Positions 1 to 9,249 of a stretch of DNA of 10,176 nt are shown piece after piece. The DNA comes from Eubacteriales bacterium. Lineage in GTDB: Bacteria > Bacillota > Clostridia > Oscillospirales > CAG-272. Below the pieces are notes generated by a model. It saw only the letters and a list, made by a program, of their open reading frames with translations, ran no database searches and was not told the origin of the DNA. Made by a program: the position numbers and the translations under genes. The stretch's first letter is position 1; each line of letters opens with the position of its first letter. Location of the stretch: assembly GCA_045629725.1 (NCBI GenBank), contig JAZQRT010000080.1, positions 1 through 10,176 of the forward strand, written 5' to 3'.

Positions 1-113
1 GGCGGAATGATAGATTTCGATTTGATGTCCGAAACATTGTTTGCTTGGTCAAAAAAATGGATTTCAGAAAACAGTTAAACAAATTGGAATTTGTCGAACA
101 GACAGCGATGTGA
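1..113 (+). other. Possible 3' end of an upstream + strand gene that enters from outside the window. Two frames are open from position 1: frame 1 stops at 76-78 and frame 3 stops at 111-113. The frame is undetermined.
   Basis: Open reading frames run into the window edge. An intrinsic terminator follows at 180-216. No start codon or RBS lies inside the window, so the gene cannot be identified. Confidence 0.2.
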
Positions 114-179
114 GATCTCGCACCTTTTTTGCGTTTTTACCTATGCCTACGCACCGTTTGTGCGCTTCTTCGCAAATAG

Positions 180-216
180 AAAAGCCGCGCACGTAAGTGA
201 GCGGCTTTTCTTTTTG
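180..216 (+). terminator. Rho-independent terminator: 12-13 bp GC-rich stem (aaaagccgcgcac / gtgagcggctttt) with a GTAA tetraloop and a T-run.
   Basis: Inverted repeat 180-192 / 197-209 with one mismatch, followed by tcttttt (209-216). An A-run on the 5' side makes it potentially bidirectional. Confidence 0.6.
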
Positions 217-218
217 TA

Positions 219-303
219 CTTTTCTCTCTTCACTATTCACTTTTCTCTTTTCACTATCCCACGCAACTTTTCCGGAGAAGAAATAATAGAGAAAAGAGAA
301 AAG
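219..303. repeat. Three copies of a ~17-nt T/C-rich motif (TTTTCTCT[C/T]TTCACTAT). Two are direct (219-236 and 240-256) and one is inverted (285-303).
   Basis: Read directly from the sequence. The reverse complement of 285-303 is cttttctcttttctctatt, against 239-256 cttttctcttttcactat. Confidence 0.5.
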
Positions 304-599
304 AAAAGGTAGCTTTTCTCCCGTTGTCGAAAAGCATTGATTTTTATTTGGAAACATGATATAAACTTTTCAAAGACTAAAAAGGATACAACGATTACAA
401 AACAATTATTGCGTTCTGCAACAAGTATCGGTGCCTACATAAATGAAGCCATTTACTATCATATGTTAAAAAAGAACCCTAATACAGTTTTTATTAATAT
501 TCCTTCTCTCAAAGGTATGAATAATGCCTTAATGAATAAATTGACCGAGATATTTTGAGTACTATTTTTCAAAATACACCATCAAAAAGGAGCCACACT

Positions 600-1613
600 A
601 TGCCCAACATACAAAAAGGCAGAAATATATATCTTGACCTTTTCAAATTTTTTCTCTGCTATCTCGTTATAGCGATTCACCTTGCAGGTGAAACTTATTC
701 TCATTTTCCTCTTTACCGCTTGGCGGTGCCCATGTTTTTTCTCATAAGCGGATATTTTAACTATTCCTCCGATACATCTCGGTTGCAGAGTAAGGCTTTG
801 GGATTCATTAAACGGTCATTCCGCTATATGCTCATGGGATTTCTCATTTACATAATCTTCGATTTCGTTATGTGCTACGTCGAGGGACGTGGCGTTGGCT
901 ACTATTTCACCACGCTTTTTTATGAGGATCTCCTCCTTGAGTTTTTTATTCTCAACCGACCGATAACATATACCGGCGCTCAGCTTTGGTTTTTGATCGC
1001 GCTTTTTGTGGTGTCCCTTATCCACTATATCCTCGTCCGATTTGATAGACTCAGATATTATAAGATCATCATTCCCCTTTGCTACCTAATTTACTTTTTC
1101 TTTGCAGGATATATGTATCTTTTCCAAAATACTGATATGCCCATCAGGTACACAAGAAATGCTTTGTTTTTCGGGCTTCCCAATTTTGCTCTTGGGTATA
1201 CTCTTGCAAAATTTGATTTCCACAAAAAATCATGGTATAAATATATCTATCTCCTTCTCGGCATGCTTTGCTTTTTCCTGCAGATTATTGAGGACCGCCT
1301 TGTGAGAGTGGAGAACTGCTCCCTTGAAATGTATATAATGGGAGTGCTCTCAGCCGTTTTCCTCCTCCAATTCTTTTTGGGCATCAAGAAAAGCGACTGT
1401 CCCTTTTACTACCGCTATATCGGCAAAAACGCCTCCTTTGGGGTCTATATCCTCCACATGGCAGTGGCAGTTGTGCTTTCAAAGATCTTCACATTCCCCA
1501 ATCTCATGTTTAAAAGCTTTGTTGTTTTGATCGCGTCGTTTCTTGTGTATGAGATGGCTTACCTTTTGAGCATGGTATTAAAAACATCTCAAAGCAAAAA
1601 ACACTTGCAATAA
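600..1613 (+). CDS. Acyltransferase family 3 (Acyl_transf_3 / OatA-like O-acyltransferase) integral membrane protein, 337 aa.
   Basis: RBS aaaaaggag at 584-592, then ATG at 600 after a 7-nt spacer. The ORF-track TTG at 555 has no RBS. The N-terminus (NIYLDLFKFFLCYLVIAIHLAG...PMFFLISGYF) matches the characteristic start of AT3-family acyltransferases. The protein is hydrophobic and multi-TM throughout. Confidence 0.75.
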   Translation: MPNIQKGRNIYLDLFKFFLCYLVIAIHLAGETYSHFPLYRLAVPMFFLISGYFNYSSDTSRLQSKALGFIKRSFRYMLMGFLIYIIFDFVMCYVEGRGVGYYFTTLFYEDLLLEFFILNRPITYTGAQLWFLIALFVVSLIHYILVRFDRLRYYKIIIPLCYLIYFFFAGYMYLFQNTDMPIRYTRNALFFGLPNFALGYTLAKFDFHKKSWYKYIYLLLGMLCFFLQIIEDRLVRVENCSLEMYIMGVLSAVFLLQFFLGIKKSDCPFYYRYIGKNASFGVYILHMAVAVVLSKIFTFPNLMFKSFVVLIASFLVYEMAYLLSMVLKTSQSKKHLQ

Positions 1614-1633
1614 AACCCAACCTATGTTATAAT
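1605..1633 (+). promoter_or_regulatory. Sigma-70-type promoter TTGCAA-17 nt-(TG)TATAAT with an extended -10. It overlaps the stop codon of the acyltransferase gene.
   Basis: -35 TTGCAA at 1605-1610, 17-nt spacer, TGtTATAAT at 1625-1633. It would start a transcript at ~1640 that contains the leader/terminator structures ahead of the lipoprotein gene pair. Confidence 0.5.
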
Positions 1634-1677: not shown

Positions 1678-1715
1678 AAAATCCCGAACAGATCGTTTGG
1701 GATTTTTTGCTTTTT
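1678..1715 (+). terminator. Rho-independent terminator or attenuator between the acyltransferase gene and lipoprotein gene A.
   Basis: 12-bp stem aaaatcccgaac (1678-1689) / gtttgggatttt (1695-1706), 5-nt loop, then ttttttgcttttt. The 3'-arm sequence gtttggg is duplicated upstream at 1655-1661, giving a possible alternative pairing. Confidence 0.65.
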
Positions 1716-1751: not shown

Positions 1752-2843
1752 ATGAAAAGATCACTTGCTCTTATATTGACCGTTTTCTTCCTGCTTCCTC
1801 TTTTGCTCGGTTCTTGTACACAAACGCCTCAATCAAATGAAACCTCAACACCTGAATCCTCAACATCGGAAGCACCGCTCCCCGAGTTAAAACAGCTCGG
1901 ACTGGATATTGATTCATACTCAACCAAGAACGCATTCAACCCGATTTTAGATGTTCGATATAACCGTTTAAGTCTCAGCACCGCATTTTTCTCAAGCGAC
2001 CCTGAACGAAAAAAGTTTGAAGTTGAGATAACAATAAGCCTCAACGGTTGCCCTGAGCCAAACCTTGAAGATCCTTTTCCCGCAAATTTTTTCCGTAGTG
2101 TCTCTCTGGTTTCAGATTCAGAATCGGTAACAGAAAAAATAAACGGAACTGCCGTTGAAATTGACGCTTCCGTTTTGGAAAAGCTGCCTGAGGATACCAT
2201 AAAAGGCAGATATTCTTTTGATCTTTCCGATTTACCCGACAAAGGGGATTATTCCCTTGAGATCGTACTGTCTCCAAAATCACGAAGCAAGAATAAAAAC
2301 ACGATCCATACCATCAAAAACGCGGTAACGATCGGTGAAAAAATTGAATTTGCAAGCGAAAAAGTTATAGAACTTGCGGACAGTAAGCTTAAAGAAAAGG
2401 CGGCAGATAATAAATATCAATATTACCGCCCCGATCGGCTGAGATACGACTATGAAGAAGACTACTATCACACATGGTTTTATATGTATCTGGAAAAGTA
2501 CCGCACTGATGCGGCTTACGGTGCATACGTTGATATAAACAACAAAAAAGTTACTAAATACGAATTTAAAGATAGAAATAATTATTCCTACTATTTTGAT
2601 AAAATCACCAAAGAAGATATACTCACGGCAGAAAACGCGCTTCTTACAAAGGTAAATGATTACCTTACAAAAGAGGGACAAAAAACCTACACACTTGAAA
2701 ACGCGCCTTTTTGGCTTAGTTGTGAGGGCGGCGGACCTCTTACTCTCTCAACAGAGCTTATCATTCCCGTAAAGGAAGGCGAGGTCTCAGGCTGCGGCGA
2801 TCACAAGCATGCAATGTTTTCAGAAAATATTTACCCCAAATAA
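1752..2843 (+). CDS. Lipoprotein, paralogue A, 363 aa. Signal peptide MKRSLALILTVFFLLPLLLGSC with lipobox L-L-G-S-C. Function unknown.
   Basis: RBS gaaaggag 7 nt before ATG at 1752. SPase II lipobox. Ser/Thr/Glu-rich linker after the Cys. A conserved block (FFSSDPERKKFEVE) and a C-terminal module (ITKEDILTAENALLTKVNDYLTKEGQKTYTLEN ... CGDHKHAMFSENIYPK) are shared with the next gene. Confidence 0.8.
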   Translation: MKRSLALILTVFFLLPLLLGSCTQTPQSNETSTPESSTSEAPLPELKQLGLDIDSYSTKNAFNPILDVRYNRLSLSTAFFSSDPERKKFEVEITISLNGCPEPNLEDPFPANFFRSVSLVSDSESVTEKINGTAVEIDASVLEKLPEDTIKGRYSFDLSDLPDKGDYSLEIVLSPKSRSKNKNTIHTIKNAVTIGEKIEFASEKVIELADSKLKEKAADNKYQYYRPDRLRYDYEEDYYHTWFYMYLEKYRTDAAYGAYVDINNKKVTKYEFKDRNNYSYYFDKITKEDILTAENALLTKVNDYLTKEGQKTYTLENAPFWLSCEGGGPLTLSTELIIPVKEGEVSGCGDHKHAMFSENIYPK

Positions 2844-2882
2844 GAAATAAAAATCGAAATTAACAGAAAGAAGAGACTAACC

Positions 2883-3905
2883 ATGAAAAGAACACTTGCT
2901 CTTATATTGACCGTTTTCTTCCTGCTTCCTCTTTTGCTCAGCTCCTGCACACCCTCACCGAAGCTGATACAAACACAAGCAGGAGAGCCGATCTACAAAA
3001 AACTCTACAATTATGATTCCAAACTCAATCTGAACGTGGGATACTACAGCCTCGATATTGAAGCCCTTTTCTTCTCCGAAGACCCCGAAAGAAGAATATT
3101 TGAAGTGGAATTCACCGTCAAGATCACCGATTATGAAGAAACCGCCAAGGAGAAGCTTTTCCCCGAGAGCTTTTTCTCGCAAGCATATTTCTTGAATTCA
3201 GAGTCCGAGGAAATTAAAATAATGGGTACACCCATTGAAAACTCAAAAATCGAGCAAAAGGACACAGTTATAATAAGATACGCTTTCGATATGGGTGAAA
3301 GTCCTGCCGAGGGAAACTATGATTTAAACGTATTGTTTACTGATAACACCTCGGAGCCAAGCCTCAGTTTTCCCTATGCCGTGATCGTTCGGGATAAGAT
3401 AGAAATATTAAATGAGGTATTTTACCCGATTTCAGATGAAGCGCTTGTAAAAAAAGTCGGTAGTGATAAATCCTCTCAATTTAAACTGAGAAACGTTTTG
3501 TATCAAGCCGAGTCCGACAGCTTTATAATAATGTACAACAGATATTTGGGAGATTATGATACGGACAATTACTACAGCATAACAATTAACGCCAAAGAGA
3601 AAACGACTTCACATGAGGATCTATGTGAATTGACCAATCTTACAAAACTCTTTGAAAACATCACCGACGAGGATATTAAATCAGCAGAGCTTGCTCTTTT
3701 GGAACAGGTCAATAATTACCGTACAAAGGAAGGACAAACAATCTTTACCTTACATGAATTAAAAAGACTAATCCTCCTCTACCCCTATACCAAAGACTAT
3801 GCCTGCCTGTCGGTTGAATTTATCGTTCCTGCAAAAGAAGGCGACGATGCCCCCTGCGATGACCACTGGCACGTGATGTTTGATGAACAAATTTATCCGA
3901 GATAA
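2883..3905 (+). CDS. Lipoprotein, paralogue B, 340 aa. Signal peptide MKRTLALILTVFFLLPLLLSSC. Tandem duplicate of the preceding gene.
   Basis: The first ~60 nt are nearly identical to those of gene A (about 2 mismatches before the lipobox codons). The body is divergent. The same C-terminal motifs are present (DEDIKSAELALLEQVNNYRTKEGQTIFTLHE ... CDDHWHVMFDEQIYPR). There is only a 39-nt gap and no terminator after gene A, so the two are probably co-transcribed. Confidence 0.8.
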   Translation: MKRTLALILTVFFLLPLLLSSCTPSPKLIQTQAGEPIYKKLYNYDSKLNLNVGYYSLDIEALFFSEDPERRIFEVEFTVKITDYEETAKEKLFPESFFSQAYFLNSESEEIKIMGTPIENSKIEQKDTVIIRYAFDMGESPAEGNYDLNVLFTDNTSEPSLSFPYAVIVRDKIEILNEVFYPISDEALVKKVGSDKSSQFKLRNVLYQAESDSFIIMYNRYLGDYDTDNYYSITINAKEKTTSHEDLCELTNLTKLFENITDEDIKSAELALLEQVNNYRTKEGQTIFTLHELKRLILLYPYTKDYACLSVEFIVPAKEGDDAPCDDHWHVMFDEQIYPR

Positions 3906-3914
3906 AGCTTACAC

Positions 3915-3951
3915 GGGATGTAAAACTAAACTATGTTTTACATCCCTTTTT
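3915..3951 (+). terminator. Rho-independent terminator after the lipoprotein pair.
   Basis: Perfect 12-bp stem gggatgtaaaac / gttttacatccc, 8-nt loop, then ttttt. Confidence 0.8.
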
Positions 3952-4025: not shown

Positions 4026-5471
4026 ATGGCAAGCTTTGCAGATTCCATCCCAAGAGAAAAAAACAGCAACGGATTCCTTAAATTTTTAAAGGTTTTCGGT
4101 ATCGTATTGTGCTCCTTGCTCGGCATAATCATCATCTCGGTTCTTGGGCTTTACTTTATTATCACGAACACTCTCAACAATACACTTTTTGACCAATCCT
4201 GCCCGATCATTGAAGCAAGTGATACCTCTGTCAATTGGATCCCCGCAGAAAACGATCTTATCCCCGTTCTCGTTGATATTCGAGTTACTAAGGAGAAGAC
4301 CGAATATAATATCCCGCTTGCAAGAAATAACGATCAGGATTTTTTTAACGATATAAAGGTAACGGGAAGATTTCTCGGATTAAACGGAGAGATCATTGAA
4401 AAAGATATTGAAGACTTTACGATTGATTTTAGTGAAGATACCTTCACCACGGCAGGAAAAAAGAATCTTCGTATATATATTATCGTTGAATACCTTGGAC
4501 TTAAGGTTACAGCAGAGGCAAACATTCCCATAACCGTGACCTCGGATGGACCATCAAATTCCGATTCTCCCTTTGACTCCGACACCTCCAAGAATTCAGT
4601 GCAGGTTGAATACGATACCTCAAGCCTTTATGAAAACAAGGAAATATATGACGATGACTCACTTGAAAAGATCAAGGAAGGTTATCAGCAGCCTATTTAT
4701 AAGGTTGATCAAAAGGACGAAAACATTTTTAATATTCTTATTATTACAACGGATAATAATAAAGTCGATCCCGATGCAAAAAGAAGCAATATCGGTATTT
4801 TGACCATTCTTTCCTACAATTTCAACACAAGCGAAGCAACGACGTTTAACTTGGACGAAAAAATGATCGGAGCCTATGACGGTCAGTTCTACACCCTCAA
4901 CGGAATTTGGGCGATCGGCGGTCCCGGAGCATTGATAAATTCTATCAATAACATGCTTGATCTTGATATCCAAAGGTATATCTATATGGATCCCTCTTCA
5001 CTTTTGGAGCTTGTTGATACTGTTGGCACAGTTCCGATTACACTTACGGAAGAAGAAATCAATCTTTTGGGACTTGAAAACGTCGCCCCCGGAAACGTAT
5101 TGCTTGACCGCAACATGGCACTCGTATATATTAACCTTGAGGGACCTGACAAAACAAACCGCCAGCAAAAATTTGCAAGTGCCGTTTTGAAGAAAACCTT
5201 TGACGGAATGTCCATTTCCGACTTTTCCTCTTTCATTTCCAAACTTAGCTTTGCAACGAGCAATTTGTCCACAGAGATACTTATTGACCTTGTATTCTCA
5301 AAGGGTATTGACGTTAATAATCTTCAGATCGACCAGTTTAATGCTCCCTTCGGCGAGTTCGGAGAGGATTATTCTTTCGTTGTCTCGGCAAAGGGTAACT
5401 ACGCTATGCTCTATACAGATCTTGAAAAATTGAAAGAAGAGATGTATCAGTACATAGGCTACAGCGACTAA
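4026..5471 (+). CDS. LytR-CpsA-Psr (LCP) family protein, divergent, 481 aa. It has an N-terminal TM anchor and a ~200-aa extracytoplasmic N-terminal extension before the LCP domain.
   Basis: TM helix FLKFLKVFGIVLCSLLGIIIISVLGLYFII. The region NILIITTDNN...RSNIGILTIL...YTLNGIWAIGGPGALINSINNMLDLDIQRYIYMDPSSLLELVDTVGTVPITL...LLDRNMALVYINLEG resembles the LCP-domain consensus (ilgsD...R.Dtiml...kiNaA..GGp...v..llgi.id.yv.vnf.gf..lvDalGGV ... ALaYaR.R). Confidence 0.65.
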   Translation: MASFADSIPREKNSNGFLKFLKVFGIVLCSLLGIIIISVLGLYFIITNTLNNTLFDQSCPIIEASDTSVNWIPAENDLIPVLVDIRVTKEKTEYNIPLARNNDQDFFNDIKVTGRFLGLNGEIIEKDIEDFTIDFSEDTFTTAGKKNLRIYIIVEYLGLKVTAEANIPITVTSDGPSNSDSPFDSDTSKNSVQVEYDTSSLYENKEIYDDDSLEKIKEGYQQPIYKVDQKDENIFNILIITTDNNKVDPDAKRSNIGILTILSYNFNTSEATTFNLDEKMIGAYDGQFYTLNGIWAIGGPGALINSINNMLDLDIQRYIYMDPSSLLELVDTVGTVPITLTEEEINLLGLENVAPGNVLLDRNMALVYINLEGPDKTNRQQKFASAVLKKTFDGMSISDFSSFISKLSFATSNLSTEILIDLVFSKGIDVNNLQIDQFNAPFGEFGEDYSFVVSAKGNYAMLYTDLEKLKEEMYQYIGYSD

Positions 5472-5626: not shown

Positions 5627-6403
5627 TTAAAACCCGTCATACTCGTCAAGGTCTGAAGGAACGTTTACATTCACTTCCTTACCGGGATCAACTATCTTAA
5701 GGTCATCGGTTACCTGAACTTCAATATCAAACGTTTGTGTTTGAACCTTGACCTTCAGCTTAAGATCATATGAAACCGAATAGCTTACAACGTATCCGTC
5801 CTTTACCTCGATTCCAACCTTACAATTATCAAAGGTCTTTGAGTTTATTTTTCCTATCGCTTCCACGGATGCAACAGAACGGTCTATATACTCTTTGAAA
5901 TTTGCCTCAAACACCTCGGGGGTAAGCTCAAATTCAATCTTTCCCTCTTCAAGTGTCTTTTCTCCGAACTGCTCCTCCGGTATCATACGGAAAAAGGATT
6001 TAACAAGGTCATAGACATTGTAGCTGTCTGTTTCTTTGCCCTCTTTTACCTTTGTCTTTGATCCAAGAGCATCAAGATAAAAATATCCATCTTTATAATA
6101 AAGACCCATATCAACCGTAACGCCGCTTGTTTTTATCGAAAGATCGGTGGAATATTCCGGAGTCTCAGTATTAAATCCCTTGAACACCGAGGTTATATTA
6201 GTCTTCTGAGTCTGTGTTGACCCATCAACCTTCTGCTTGGCGTTTTCATCGAGCACAACCTTGACCATATCAAGTGCAAGGGTGTTTTCTATCGCTTCTG
6301 TTACTGCTTCATAAGGTGTTTTTTCCTTTTTACAGGATACAAGCGAAAGAGATGAAATTACCATAATTACAGCAAGAACCAATGATAAAATCTTTGTCTT
6401 CAT
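5627..6403 (-). CDS. Lipoprotein, 258 aa. Signal peptide MKTKILSLVLAVIMVISSLSLVSC with lipobox L-V-S-C. It is the last gene of the flotillin operon. Function unknown.
   Basis: RBS AAAAGGAG 6 nt upstream of ATG (reverse complement of 6401-6418). No convincing terminator separates it from the flotillin gene 93 nt upstream. It is terminated by the bidirectional terminator at 5576-5625. Confidence 0.75.
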   Translation of the reverse strand: MKTKILSLVLAVIMVISSLSLVSCKKEKTPYEAVTEAIENTLALDMVKVVLDENAKQKVDGSTQTQKTNITSVFKGFNTETPEYSTDLSIKTSGVTVDMGLYYKDGYFYLDALGSKTKVKEGKETDSYNVYDLVKSFFRMIPEEQFGEKTLEEGKIEFELTPEVFEANFKEYIDRSVASVEAIGKINSKTFDNCKVGIEVKDGYVVSYSVSYDLKLKVKVQTQTFDIEVQVTDDLKIVDPGKEVNVNVPSDLDEYDGF

Positions 6404-6496: not shown

Positions 6497-7900
6497 TTAC
6501 TCTGCGCTTTGCTCATTTTCAACGGAAACTGCTTCCGTTGTGGGTATTTTCTTTCCAAGAACCTCGGGAAGCTGCATTCCTGCAAGAGAGAATACCTCTT
6601 CAAGAGGGGGAACTGACTTCATCATGCCTGAAAGGAAGTTTGCGGTTGAAGTCTTACCGTCACCGTTTTGACCGCCGTCCCAAACAGTAACCTTATCGAT
6701 CTTGATATTCTTGATCGCGTCAACCTGTACACGCATAAGGTCTTCAAGCTTATCGGCTATAAGAAGCTTAAGAGCCGCATCTGTGTCGCCGCCTGCGGAT
6801 TTTACGATCTCTGCAAAACCTGCAGCCTGCTTTTTAAGGATCTCCTCAACGCCTCGAGCCTGTGCTTCCATCTTTGCATAGATAGCATCAGCCTCACCCT
6901 GTGCGCGTCTTCTCATCTGCTCAGCCTCAGCCTCAGCTTCAAGTTCCATTTCCTTCTTCTTAGCCTCTGCACGAACGATAACATCTGCCTCGAGTGTTGC
7001 CTGTTCCTTGGAGCGTCTTGCTTCTTCTGCCGCTCTTTCTGCCGCATAGGACTCCTCAAGGGCTTTCGCTGCCTGGATCTTTTCTGCTGTTGTTGCGATC
7101 TTCATAGCCTCAGCCTGCTTTTCCTTGAGGGCAGCCTCGGACATCGCGATATTCATTTTTGCTGCGTTTTCACCCTGGATAGCAATTGAATTGGACTCGG
7201 AAACCTTGATTCTCTGCTCCATGTGTGCGTTTGCTTCACCGATAGAACCGTCTCTTTCCTGCTCCGCAACGCTCTTTTTAGCATCGTTGATAGCCTTTGC
7301 TGCCGCTTCCTTACCAAGAGCCGCGATATATCCGGACTCATCGCTGATGTCTGTTACGTTTACGTTGATAAGTCTAAGACCGATCTTCTTAAGCTCTGTT
7401 TCCACGTTGCTGCTGACAGCCGCAAGGAACTTGTCACGGTCTGTATTGATCTCCTCGATATCCATCGTTGCAATTACAAGACGGAGCTGACCGAAGATGA
7501 TATCCTTTGAAAGCTCCTGAATCTCGGAAAGCTGGAGTCCGAGAAGTCTTTCAGCCGCATTCTGCATTACGCCGGGCTCTGTTGAGATACCTACTGTAAA
7601 TCTTGAAGGTACGTCAATTCTGATGTTCTGACGTGAAAGTGCATTCTTAAGGTCAACCTGAATTGAAATGGGAGTCAGGTCAAGGTATGAATACGCCTGA
7701 AATATCGGAACAACGAATTCCGCGCCGCCGTGGATACACTTTGAGTTTCTGTTTGTGCCATCCTTGTTTTTACCGATAGAACCGTAGATAACCATGATCT
7801 TGTCGGAAGGACACTTCTTGTATCTTGAGAAGATCCATGCAAGGAAGGAAACAAGTATAATTACTATTGCGCCAATAAGAAAAATTACTTCTTGAGTCAT
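6497..7900 (-). CDS. floT: Flotillin-like SPFH/band-7 protein (FloT / YuaG / YqiK type), 467 aa.
   Basis: N-terminal TM, then an SPFH domain with KCIHGGAEFVVPIFQ (compare B. subtilis FloT KIVRGGGTFVLPVFQ). A long Ala/Glu/Lys-rich coiled-coil region (EA repeats) and a C-terminal DKVTVWDGGQNG (compare DKITVVDTGGSG) follow. The true start is ATG at 7900, with GGAGG 8 nt upstream. The ORF-track TTG at 7915 lies inside the RBS. Confidence 0.9.
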   Translation of the reverse strand: MTQEVIFLIGAIVIILVSFLAWIFSRYKKCPSDKIMVIYGSIGKNKDGTNRNSKCIHGGAEFVVPIFQAYSYLDLTPISIQVDLKNALSRQNIRIDVPSRFTVGISTEPGVMQNAAERLLGLQLSEIQELSKDIIFGQLRLVIATMDIEEINTDRDKFLAAVSSNVETELKKIGLRLINVNVTDISDESGYIAALGKEAAAKAINDAKKSVAEQERDGSIGEANAHMEQRIKVSESNSIAIQGENAAKMNIAMSEAALKEKQAEAMKIATTAEKIQAAKALEESYAAERAAEEARRSKEQATLEADVIVRAEAKKKEMELEAEAEAEQMRRRAQGEADAIYAKMEAQARGVEEILKKQAAGFAEIVKSAGGDTDAALKLLIADKLEDLMRVQVDAIKNIKIDKVTVWDGGQNGDGKTSTANFLSGMMKSVPPLEEVFSLAGMQLPEVLGKKIPTTEAVSVENEQSAE

Positions 7901-7936
7901 TTGTTTTTCCTCCAAATAAAAAATTTAATTAATACA

Positions 7937-7969: not shown

Positions 7970-8614
7970 TTACTTGCGCTTTACCACAAGTGTTGTTTTG
8001 CCGCTGAGTCCGATTACGGTAACCTCGCTTCCCGTGGGAATTGGTGTGCCTTCGTCCGTAACCGCTTCTCTTTCGGAATATACGCCTTGAAGCATGATAT
8101 GTACCTTGCCAAGTCCCGATCTTTCAGCAGGGATCACAAGCTGAACTCTGCCGGAAACACCCAGAGCATTTTTGTTGTCCGTTGTTCCGTCGCTTCGAAG
8201 CTTCATGACCCATCTTACAAGCAGTGCAAGTAAGAACATCATTGCAAGACCGCAAAGCGTTGAAACAAGTATCGTCCATGCAAGAGAGAGTCCTCCGTTG
8301 TATGCAACCACACCAACCCAACCGAATACGGTAAAGAAAGCCATTATACCTCTTACGGAGAAAATTCGAAGTCCGTCAAGTCCCGAAATATCATCGGCAT
8401 CGGGGATATCACCATCTCCGTATATTCCGTCCGAGGAATCACCGTCGGGCATATCAATATCCCCGTCTGCATCAGCACCTGAATCCCCTCCAAAGCCTAT
8501 AAACATTAAGATCGTCTGTATGAGCGTTATCAGCGTAGTAGGCAACGCTATACACGCAAACACTTGGGATACAAGTCCAAGTGAATTCCACCATTCAATA
8601 AAAAACATTTCCAT
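7970..8614 (-). CDS. NfeD-like (YuaF/YqiJ-type) membrane protein with a C-terminal OB-fold beta-barrel, 214 aa (or 212 aa from the second ATG at 8608).
   Basis: Sits immediately upstream of and co-oriented with the flotillin gene, the classic NfeD-SPFH pairing. Two hydrophobic segments and a C-terminal GRVQLVIPAERSGLGKVHIMLQGVYSER...EVTVIGLSGKTTLVVKR typical of the NfeD short-form OB domain. It has an unusual Asp/Gly-rich insert. RBS AAAGGAAG abuts the first ATG, so the second ATG (8608) has the better spacing. Confidence 0.8.
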   Translation of the reverse strand: MEMFFIEWWNSLGLVSQVFACIALPTTLITLIQTILMFIGFGGDSGADADGDIDMPDGDSSDGIYGDGDIPDADDISGLDGLRIFSVRGIMAFFTVFGWVGVVAYNGGLSLAWTILVSTLCGLAMMFLLALLVRWVMKLRSDGTTDNKNALGVSGRVQLVIPAERSGLGKVHIMLQGVYSEREAVTDEGTPIPTGSEVTVIGLSGKTTLVVKRK

Positions 8615-8627
8615 CTTCCTTTCTTAC

Positions 8628-9182
8628 TTAATAAAGTGCGGTAAGCATTTGGTCTGCAGTTTGTCTGAACTGCGTAGCAAAGTGTCCGTAGATCATTACC
8701 TGAAGAATTTGCTCAAGCTTCTTTTTGGCACCCGGAATCGGTTCTACATAATCCTCAACCGCTCGCCTTGCACTCTCAGCAACAGTATCGGGACGAAGTA
8801 TATCAATATCTCCCCCCGCGATCATATCTACGTAACGATGATAAAGCTCATCATCTGAAATAAGATCGTCAGTTTCGTCCTCAAGCTCTCCTCCGATAAC
8901 CTTGATCAGATTGCATATCTTGTCTATCTGCAACGACTCTCTCAACATATTTATTATTACGATCCTCGCAAATTGACTTTTTGAATAAACTCTTTTTTTG
9001 GGAGACGTCAAAAATCCTCTTTTTACCCAGTTTTGTACAACGTATGGCTCAAGTCCCGTCATAACCGAAACCTGTGAAAGTGTTATACCCCCTGTTGCGA
9101 AGATACCGTCAAAAAGAATTTTTGAACTTCCCTTTTCAATGATTTTAACTTCTATGGTCGTTCCCGGAAACAATTTCGACAT
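8628..9182 (-). CDS. Small MerR-like helix-turn-helix protein (DUF1836-like), 184 aa. First gene of the flotillin operon.
   Basis: RBS GGAGGTG 6 nt upstream of ATG at 9182. The ORF-track extension to 9230 translates across the RBS. The segment GITLSQVSVMTGLEPYVVQNWVKRGFL resembles a MerR-family HTH. The C-terminus is acidic. The stop lies 13 nt before the NfeD start. Confidence 0.55.
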   Translation of the reverse strand: MSKLFPGTTIEVKIIEKGSSKILFDGIFATGGITLSQVSVMTGLEPYVVQNWVKRGFLTSPKKRVYSKSQFARIVIINMLRESLQIDKICNLIKVIGGELEDETDDLISDDELYHRYVDMIAGGDIDILRPDTVAESARRAVEDYVEPIPGAKKKLEQILQVMIYGHFATQFRQTADQMLTALY

Positions 9183-9220
9183 CCTATCACCTCCATTCGA
9201 GTCTTTTCTTCTGTGTCTTA

Positions 9221-9249
9221 ATTGTAGCACATGGTCGCGTGATTGTCAA
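9221..9249 (-). promoter_or_regulatory. Consensus sigma-70 promoter TTGACA-17 nt-TACAAT on the minus strand, driving the MerR-like / NfeD / flotillin / lipoprotein operon.
   Basis: The reverse complement of 9244-9249 is TTGACA and the reverse complement of 9221-9226 is TACAAT, with a 17-nt spacer. An A-rich UP-like tract lies upstream (reverse complement of 9250-9270). Confidence 0.7.

Follow-up and report, generated by a model that had tools for sequence, protein, structure and literature searches.

Two tandem lipoprotein genes with a shared signal-peptide cassette and a conserved C-terminal Glu/His-x-His motif in a CAG-272 bacterium

Two adjacent genes, A and B, of a Eubacteriales bacterium of the CAG-272 lineage start with almost the same DNA, whereas their bodies have diverged widely. 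They lie in a stretch of 10,176 nucleotides that makes up a complete NCBI contig (the window; positions 1 to 10,176 of contig JAZQRT010000080.1, assembly GCA_045629725.1). The original prediction, made from the letters alone, described them as tandem paralogous lipoproteins, and both open reading frames are found where it had placed them, on the forward strand (Table 1); their products are 36% identical in BLASTP (E = 8e-57). Here, we ask how the near-identity of the 5' ends arose, which forms the locus takes in related strains, and what the conserved C-terminal half of the proteins might do. On balance, we favor an explanation in which A and B form an operon, their signal-peptide segments were equalized by gene conversion, and their products are surface modules of predicted PepSY/FTP-like fold with a proposed metal-binding role.

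History of the signal-peptide cassette

The cassette shared by A and B comprises the first 19 codons of each gene. In a codon-aware alignment, the two copies are identical at 56 of 57 nucleotides and differ solely at position +10 (tca/aca, Ser4/Thr4); the near-identity predicted for the first ~60 nt stands, but the estimate of about two substitutions has to be replaced by one in 57 nt. An exact repeat of 47 nt extends from +11 to +57 (1762-1808 and 2893-2939), and the window contains exactly two copies of a 45-nt core that was absent from all of 200 shuffles. The same codon is used at all 17 degenerate codons for identical residues among the first 19, as against 46 of 113 in the rest of the gene (Fisher p = 1.2e-6), and nucleotide identity drops from 0.98 in the cassette to 0.49 over the remaining aligned codons. 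The edges of the cassette are sharp: the 10 nt 5' of the ATG and the 9 nt past +57 contain four mismatches each. The two start points lie 1,131 nt apart, both in frame. Alignment of the pair at the DNA and protein levels shows that divergence is not uniform along the genes and confirms the homogenized 5' end. The blocks of patchy identity that had been picked out by eye in the bodies (SDPERKKFEVE/EDPERRIFEVE, the ED-I..AE.ALL..VN.Y.TKEGQ block and CGDHKHAMFSENIYPK/CDDHWHVMFDEQIYPR) are all present.

Homologs are very scarce. When 5.8 billion clusters were searched by word index, only the near-identical alleles P0001 (93%), P0002 (88%) and P0003 (99%) came up, and neither the exact cassette nor relatives of the family were found in the GTDB species genomes and JGI metagenomes searched. 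The contigs coding for these three alleles (L001 onward) constitute a small population sample. Two of them, L005 and L006, carry an A-type gene (P0002) in another genomic context, solo and with no B downstream; a gene for a 222-aa membrane protein lies on its upstream side and unrelated GC-rich DNA on its downstream side. The mature region of window A is 91% identical to that of L005A (938/1035 nt, dS 0.25). The cassette, in contrast, matches at 37/57 nt (65%, dS 1.72) and is the most divergent 57-nt window of the gene. Since the 5' untranslated region (UTR) of L005A is also A-like, the cassette forms a divergent island between conserved flanks, and the L005A signal peptide is about equidistant from both window cassettes (36/57 and 37/57). 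The A body thus groups with its ortholog (91%, vs 49% to B), and the A cassette groups with the paralog B, as judged against one outgroup lineage. A cassette with a history unlike that of the body it precedes implies gene conversion or an equivalent short-patch recombination. The 5' gene conversion suggested in the original prediction is borne out by these comparisons, and we consider it very probable that the cassette was homogenized by short-patch homologous recombination.

The direction of the exchange was somewhat more probably from B into A. In the common ancestor of L001-L004 and the window strain, the A segment would have been overwritten by one of B type; this would be more recent than the separation of the L005 lineage and roughly contemporary with the divergence of the sampled strains. 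Within each strain the cassette copies differ by one or two substitutions, about as many as the divergence of 1-4% between strains predicts, and the conversion is therefore approximately as old as the strain cluster. Position +10 is T in the A copies of the window, L001 and L002 and A in that of L004; among B-bodied copies, it is A in the window and L001-L003 and T in the L012 fusion gene described below. This distribution fits repeated exchange, and in L012 the T is simply a crossover marker. Two points weigh against this account. A tract of at most 59 nt between flanks that are ~50% identical is short for RecA-dependent conversion, and the direction is read from one outgroup, L005A, in which the signal peptide may itself be a replacement.

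Selection on the nucleotides themselves, through a structure in the mRNA, an element for a small RNA or for translation initiation, or a signal coupled to secretion, might also keep the 5' ends alike, and strong constraint could in principle make every synonymous site of 19 codons identical. However, L005A differs at 20/57 nt (dS 1.72) and keeps a working lipoprotein signal peptide, so that the exact sequence is not required, and nonsynonymous cassette polymorphisms (S4T, R3K, F13S) occur among strains. Shuffled sequences fold as well as the 5' regions (z = +0.46, +0.61 and +0.14), which have no Rfam matches. An account by RNA structure was rejected on this basis (z = +0.1 to +0.6), and selection on nucleotides in general is highly unlikely. 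An artifact of assembly, by repeat collapse or a chimeric contig, is more improbable still. All the data are metagenome assemblies, with L004 covered only ~2x; nevertheless, the A-B pair with both cassettes is present in the window itself (an NCBI contig) and again in L001 and L002 (an ENA scaffold and a k141 contig) and L003 (a Logan contig), strain-specific single-nucleotide polymorphisms (SNPs) tell the two cassette copies apart, and collapse would not yield two in-frame copies 1,131 nt apart.

The bodies of A and B evolved differently from their 5' ends. The original prediction attributed the variable middle to diversification of a surface-exposed domain. The dN/dS values, which are Nei-Gojobori estimates for orthologous pairs, do not support this: they are 0.24-0.42 for the mature region of A (0.37-0.67 for its N-domain and 0.12-0.30 for its C-domain) and 0.08 for B, compared with 0.08 for the neighboring acyltransferase and 0.13 for the neighboring LCP (LytR-CpsA-Psr) gene. 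Both genes are under purifying selection (0.08-0.42), which is somewhat relaxed in A, chiefly in the N-domain, and positive selection on the gene middles was rejected on these values. Synonymous sites between A and B are saturated; the middle is variable because the duplication is old.

Structural alleles of the A-B locus

The sampled contigs carry four structural types of the locus. Type I, present in the window and L001-L003, has the order acyltransferase, A, B, LCP. In type II (L012 and L013), the 3' end of the acyltransferase gene is followed by the hairpin, the 5' UTR of A, one cassette, the B body from +58, and the LCP gene. Type III (L004 and L014-L017, from several datasets) has an intact A followed by a B remnant of 246 nt and then an unrelated gene. 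Type IV is the solo A-type gene of L005 and L006, which has its own signal peptide. The gene content of the locus is fluid. The alleles without A and those without an intact B imply that each paralog is individually dispensable in nature.

Type II is the exact in-frame product expected of a crossover inside the 47-nt identical stretch. Its cassette is A-type at +10 (T) and B-type at +38 (C), and the A body and spacer (1,131 nt) are gone. The direct repeat left by conversion (47 nt exact, 56/57 overall) would itself serve as the recombination substrate. Against this interpretation, L012 and L013 are 100% identical in their overlap and are probably one sample (SAMN15871228) assembled twice, and type II could be a chimeric assembly join via the repeat. 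In type III, gene A is 92-96% identical to window A, and the segment corresponding to window positions ~2847-3066 is deleted, which removes the spacer, the start of B, its signal peptide and ~61 codons; the match to B stops at 3312. As the identical breakpoint recurs in L004 and L014-L017, type III is a real allele. Here, B was lost through a different, illegitimate deletion.

Gene A of L001 contains a nonsense codon (GAA→TAA, L001 1737-1739, equivalent to window 2121-2123) that is absent from L002. We do not treat it as a meaningful variant, as L001 and L002 differ at two positions only; it may stem from an assembly or sequencing error or represent a pseudogene variant present in the sample.

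Fold and candidate metal site of the C-terminal domain

Proteins A and B are predicted bacterial lipoproteins (Lgt/Lsp substrates). The lipobox consensus is [LVI][ASTVIG][GAS]-C, located within approximately the first 35 residues after a basic n-region and a hydrophobic h-region. A carries MKRSLALILTVFFLLPLLL-G-S-C22 and B carries MKRTLALILTVFFLLPLLL-S-S-C22 (LGSC and LSSC, respectively); the lipobox of A fits the PROSITE PS51257-type pattern. A simple lipobox pattern of our own matched 46 of the 55 tabulated proteins.

The N-terminal half of A/B is found only in close relatives, and the C-terminal half (~165 residues) occurs in ~20 distant clusters with other architectures. These were retrieved by a HMMER search that was exhaustive over 1.84 billion representatives and gave 23 matches at E ≤ 0.001. 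The profile derived from A and B recovers the family at E from 1.5e-14 to ~1e-3, and a trimmed C-domain profile that includes A and B added 33 members with E down to 2e-53, mostly lipoproteins of ~200 aa; none of the 33 has a Pfam match, and their sole source name is 'hypothetical protein'. Pfam, NCBIfam and PHROGs assign A and B to no family, NCBIfam returned signal-peptide noise only for core family members, and searches of PDB sequences with two profiles gave no matches. With all homologs unnamed, the suggestion that A and B belong to an uncharacterized lipoprotein family holds. Motif-less distant relatives found by the family profile match DUF4901 close to the threshold (P0011, E = 2e-6, 28.3 bits at a cut-off of 27; P0023, E = 4e-5, 24.2 bits), which suggests a remote evolutionary link.

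Some distant members have other architectures. P0013 and P0019 (400 aa) are not lipoproteins and consist of a ~50-aa cytoplasmic N-terminus, one transmembrane (TM) helix, the Glu/DHxH domain and an additional Tyr/Phe-rich C-terminal domain of ~150 aa without a Pfam match; this arrangement resembles a membrane-anchored sensor or anti-sigma factor. In P0006, P0009 and P0043, the lipobox and the Glu/DHxH domain are separated by an Ig-like domain of the CARDB/DUF11 type (…VTVKNIGEDY…). The sequence of this Ig-like domain has no detectable similarity to that of the A/B N-domain, and the combination of lipobox, β-sandwich and PepSY-like domain may have arisen more than once.

The AlphaFold2 (AF2) model of the C-domain, computed from a 35-sequence alignment, has a pLDDT of 88.8 and a pTM of 0.79, with five concordant models. 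It contains two modules, in which helices 8-22 and 93-113 accompany β-sheets at residues 31-79 and 127-167, respectively. This agrees with the PepSY fold, which is defined by a helix on an antiparallel sheet of three to four strands, and the two-module fold of the model is superposable on the solved propeptides of M4 and M36 proteases. The structural matches, given with their scores and match lengths, are the AfuMep (M36) prodomain (4k90_B; 9.6, 130/169), the YpeB C-terminal domain (5boi; 7.4, 101), the PepSY protein FoxB (7abw; 7.4, 86), UipA (7atk; 6.4, 61), YpmB (2gu3; 6.3, 61), the vibriolysin MCP-02 propeptide (3nqz_A; 6.0, 125) and the CD1622 lipoprotein (4exr; 5.9, 62). A Foldseek search of the C-domain against the PDB gave no match at E < 0.001 and did not confirm the PepSY fold. 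The PepSY profile PF03413 has no match to A or B above the gathering threshold and none to the 35 family members at E up to 1, and the FTP profile PF07504 has no match. From the model, we regard an FTP/PepSY-like fold as likely.

The C-terminal motif that the original prediction had singled out in A and B is conserved well beyond the two proteins, and its composition needs to be amended. Among the 50 motif-bearing members, Glu141, His157 and His159 are kept in all 50 and Asp156 in 48, while Cys154 (G-C-G), the Cys named in that prediction, is kept in 41 and absent in nine. The invariant core is thus Glu plus His-x-His. The family signature reads …G-Y-L-C-L-x-x-E-x-I-V…(5-25 residues)…G-C-G-(x)-D-H-x-H-x-F-F-x-E-R-I-C, and the Cys residues of YL-C-L and ERI-C (Cys167) are each present in most members. 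A and B possess Glu141, Asp156, His157 and His159, and form a Cys-depleted subclade: Cys167 is replaced by Tyr in the entire A/B clade, resulting in 'IYP', A has Thr in place of the YL-C-L Cys and keeps only the GCG Cys (LTLS first, IYP last), and B retains two of the three (YACLS and PCD, with IYP last). By strand alternation in the model, residues 137, 141 and 143 of one strand and 157, 159, 161 and 167 of the next are inferred to share a face of the sheet.

Mononuclear metal sites are classically built from this combination of an invariant His-x-His and a carboxylate. We tentatively propose, as a possibility raised by this conservation pattern, that the Glu/Asp/His-x-His cluster is a putative metal site. 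The last β-hairpin, which carries the invariant Glu and His-x-His, the latter preceded by the nearly invariant Asp, would form a mononuclear divalent-metal site with Zn2+ as the likeliest ion, the three variable Cys would be auxiliary ligands or form a disulfide, and the C-domain would serve binding or regulation at the cell surface and would not be an enzyme. The heme-binding alternative offered in the original prediction found no indication in its favor. Two points speak against a metal site: in some strand registers, the distance between Glu and the His pair could exceed 10 Å, and no Cys is conserved in all members. As regards function, the neighborhoods of family genes do not consistently include a peptidase, a two-component system or a metal transporter.

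It is also possible, if doubtful, that the cluster and the Cys residues are purely structural, with a buried hydrogen-bond or salt-bridge network and a disulfide steadying the last hairpin in place of a metal. An invariant Ala on the helix and invariant Ile and Leu beside Glu suggest that this face of the sheet packs on the helix, and most members have the Cys of YLCL and that of ERIC on adjacent antiparallel strands, as for a disulfide. However, a buried His-x-His and carboxylate that are invariant across sequences of 22-30% identity are more typical of a ligand set, and A/B keep Glu, Asp and both His although one or both Cys of the possible disulfide are gone.

The fold itself raises a different option, in which the C-domain is a membrane-anchored chaperone or inhibitor acting in trans on a secreted metalloprotease of the M4/M36 type or another kind, with the His-x-His/Glu patch touching the protease or its zinc. 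The top structural matches spanning both modules are the AfuMep and MCP-02 propeptides. PepSY domains are widely held to inhibit peptidases, according to the passage of PMC9988556 that cites Yeats et al. 2004, and FTP domains have been tied to folding and inhibition (PMC6117016). We consider this option rather unlikely, as there is no peptidase gene in the window or beside the distant homologs, the DHxH motif is not shared by propeptide families, and the FTP and PepSY profiles have no match. The tail of a zymogen propeptide occupies the protease cleft; the family proteins stop 2-5 residues past the last strand (two in A and B) and lack such a tail, and no open reading frame of the window contains a peptidase domain. 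No conserved neighborhood was found among the distant homologs. Behind both P0040 and P0047 lies a ~340-aa gene, which encodes an unrelated lipoprotein. Finally, the C-domain might be a small metal-dependent hydrolase or other enzyme with a catalytic Glu/Asp/His-x-His set, given that these residue types are recurrent in the active sites of metallohydrolases. We consider this very improbable: the fold is of a non-enzymatic binding or inhibitor type (cystatin-like, PepSY-like), the secondary structure hints at no obvious pocket, and no enzyme family matches.

Genomic surroundings and related systems

Table 1 Features of the A-B locus and its surroundings in the window.
Feature	Position	Strand	Remarks
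Promoter-like site	1605-1633	+	TTGCAA-17-TGnTATAAT, 5' of A, overlaps end of acyltransferase reading frame; consensus scan only, 10/12 matches
Terminator-like hairpin and T run	1678-1706	+	in leader of A, or terminator of acyltransferase gene
Gene A	1752-2843	+	363-aa lipoprotein reading frame; signal peptide and lipobox, S/T/P/E-rich linker, Ig-like β-sandwich, two-module PepSY/FTP-like C-domain (predicted)
Cassette copy 1	1752-1808	+	57 nt coding for MKRSLALILTVFFLLPLLL; 56/57 vs copy 2
Lipobox L-G-S-C of A	1806-1817	+	codon of lipidated Cys22 1815-1817; read off the sequence
N-terminal all-β domain of A	1890-2333	+	Ig-like sandwich; confined to close relatives of A/B
C-terminal domain of A	2334-2840	+	169 aa, two helix-plus-β-sheet modules (FTP/PepSY-like, predicted)
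Invariant Glu of A	2754-2756	+	E141 of C-domain; 50/50 motif-bearing members
C-terminal motif of A	2793-2837	+	C-G-D-H-K-H-A-M-F-S-E-N-I-Y-P
Motif codons of A	2793-2795 (Cys154), 2799-2801 (Asp156), 2802-2804 (His157), 2808-2810 (His159)		
A-B spacer	2844-2882	+	39 nt; holds ribosome-binding site of B (AAGAAGAGA)
Gene B	2883-3905	+	340-aa paralogous lipoprotein; architecture as A, shorter linker; exact match to an NCBI protein on a 10,176-bp contig
Cassette copy 2	2883-2939	+	57 nt coding for MKRTLALILTVFFLLPLLL; probable donor
C-terminal PepSY/FTP-like domain of B	3396-3902	+	placed from alignments; fold predicted
Motif codons of B	3816-3818 (Glu312), 3855-3857 (Cys325), 3861-3863 (Asp327), 3864-3866 (His328), 3870-3872 (His330)		
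Intrinsic terminator-like hairpin	3915-3946	+	12 bp then TTTTT, 3' of B; strong; closes A-B operon
LCP protein	4026-5471		LCP domain only 37 bits (residues 288-391)
Third lipoprotein	5627-6403	-	258 aa, MKTKILSLVLAVIMVISSLSLVSC…; signal peptide unrelated; 100% conserved between window and L001
SPFH/flotillin protein	6497-7915	-	
Membrane protein, weak NfeD-like match	7970-8614	-	
MerR-HTH/DUF1836 protein	8628-9230	-	
Strong promoter-like site	9249-9221	-	

Genes A and B belong to one operon, since no terminator was found in the spacer between them and a terminator-like hairpin follows B. The operon would encode paralogous lipid-anchored surface proteins. The stretch from window position 1544 onward accompanies gene A in L004, which has no acyltransferase gene. 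In the minimum-free-energy (MFE) fold of the A leader, 1645-1661 pairs with 1683-1697, in competition with the terminator-like hairpin of the leader (z = -1.88). No Rfam family was detected in the leader, where the top match was the trpB motif (E = 0.11; 25.9 bits vs the 59-bit threshold). The leader could be a transcription-attenuation element, or its hairpin could merely terminate the acyltransferase gene.

The neighbors of A and B are cell-envelope genes, coding for an Acyl_transf_3 acyltransferase, an LCP-family protein, a third lipoprotein and an SPFH/flotillin protein next to a weakly NfeD-like one, and also for a MerR/DUF1836 protein. From these genes, we infer a monoderm (Gram-positive-type) envelope for the host, an uncultured bacterium represented by metagenomes only. 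NfeD and flotillin genes are commonly paired. In the LCP protein, the TM helix is followed by a long uncharacterized insert on the extracellular side (~residues 60-210), which weakly matches a BgaA-like carbohydrate-binding module (CBM; E = 0.034). The third lipoprotein has no Pfam or PHROGs match.

The upstream flank differs between strains (window 1-555; L001 41-129; L004 1062-1224 and 1492-1616). In L001, tRNA-Ser(tga) directly precedes a shared palindromic terminator (window 173-216). L004 has tRNA-Thr and tRNA-Tyr ~270 nt upstream, and in the absence of the acyltransferase gene the sequence equivalent to window position 297 is joined to that of 1544. The window has 337 nt (216-552) that are not present in L001 and L002, and positions 337-558 contain a truncated reading frame similar to a 23S-rRNA-intervening-sequence protein (PF05635, E = 5e-5, under the cut-off). 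Overall, the locus resembles a variable region next to tRNA genes.

The C-domain shares its predicted overall fold with the FTP/PepSY propeptides of the M4 (thermolysin/vibriolysin) and M36 (fungalysin) peptidases, such as those of AfuMep and MCP-02. In contrast to these, A and B are stand-alone lipoproteins, neither fused to nor encoded beside a peptidase, and sequence identity to the propeptides is only 2-12%. The hallmark of the A/B family, its invariant Glu…Asp-His-x-His motif, is missing from the propeptides. The PepSY proteins YpeB, YpmB, UipA, LanP, FoxB, DbfQ and CD1622 of C. difficile are, like A and B, small, secreted or membrane-anchored, and often built of tandem modules. They differ from A/B, which have no PF03413 match and neither a SleB-like enzyme nor a two-component system next to them. 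Metal binding by UipA and LanP takes place via highly negative, Asp/Glu-rich PepSY domains (PMC9988556), whereas the A/B family has a discrete His-x-His and Glu cluster; DbfQ regulates a partner protein (PMC12714742).

The last sheet of the C-domain also shows a local structural match to WRKY domains. The β-sheet zinc finger of WRKY domains binds zinc through C-X4-5-C-X22-23-H-X-H. The Cys spacing and order differ here (C…C-x-D-H-x-H…C), as do the context, the topology outside the sheet and the function, so that the match provides a lead towards zinc binding and not a sign of homology. Because metal-binding PepSY proteins are known (UipA, LanP) and the last sheet matches WRKY, the idea of a metal site stays reasonable. 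DUF4901 (PF16244, the YcdB/YcdC repeated domain) is matched by neither A nor B nor any of the 35 motif-bearing members scanned, even at E = 1, and the DUF4901-like relatives lack the Glu/DHxH/Cys motif.

The small family delineated here has no Pfam or NCBIfam model, and it combines a confident predicted fold with a sharply defined invariant Glu/His-x-His site. Its Glu…Asp-His-x-His domain has so far been seen only in metagenome-derived sequences, mostly lipoproteins, and the metal-binding hypothesis is cheap and concrete for surface proteins that are unannotated and known only from metagenomes. More speculatively, and with considerable doubt, the ~160-residue domain could be an undescribed extracytoplasmic module for binding or sensing transition metals on a PepSY/FTP fold, and the signal-peptide cassette a built-in recombination switch. 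If so, A and B would represent a subclade poor in Cys whose module is joined to an Ig-like domain, and the switch would let strains keep A and B, or B alone behind the promoter of A. All the mechanisms considered are of known kinds and do not overturn current understanding; the value of the locus lies in annotation and in a clean natural example. That example is one of compact, well-resolved concerted evolution confined to a signal-peptide-coding segment, and the natural alleles show the outcome of the repeat, with gene loss via in-frame fusion and independent decay of the other paralog.

The closest published parallel is the lpl cluster of Staphylococcus aureus, whose DUF576 proteins are likewise encoded by tandem lipoprotein paralogs with a conserved nucleotide block in otherwise variable reading frames. 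The intragenic block of lpl is an inferred site of homologous recombination, and deletions, duplications and apparent conversions occur among strains (PMC2568036). The proteins of the two systems are unrelated, and the lpl block is central and longer, whereas here it is the 57-nt signal-peptide start; here, moreover, there are only two copies and no known role in host interaction. The A-B locus extends the principle described for lpl (PMC2568036) to a two-gene system in which the conserved block is the secretion signal itself.

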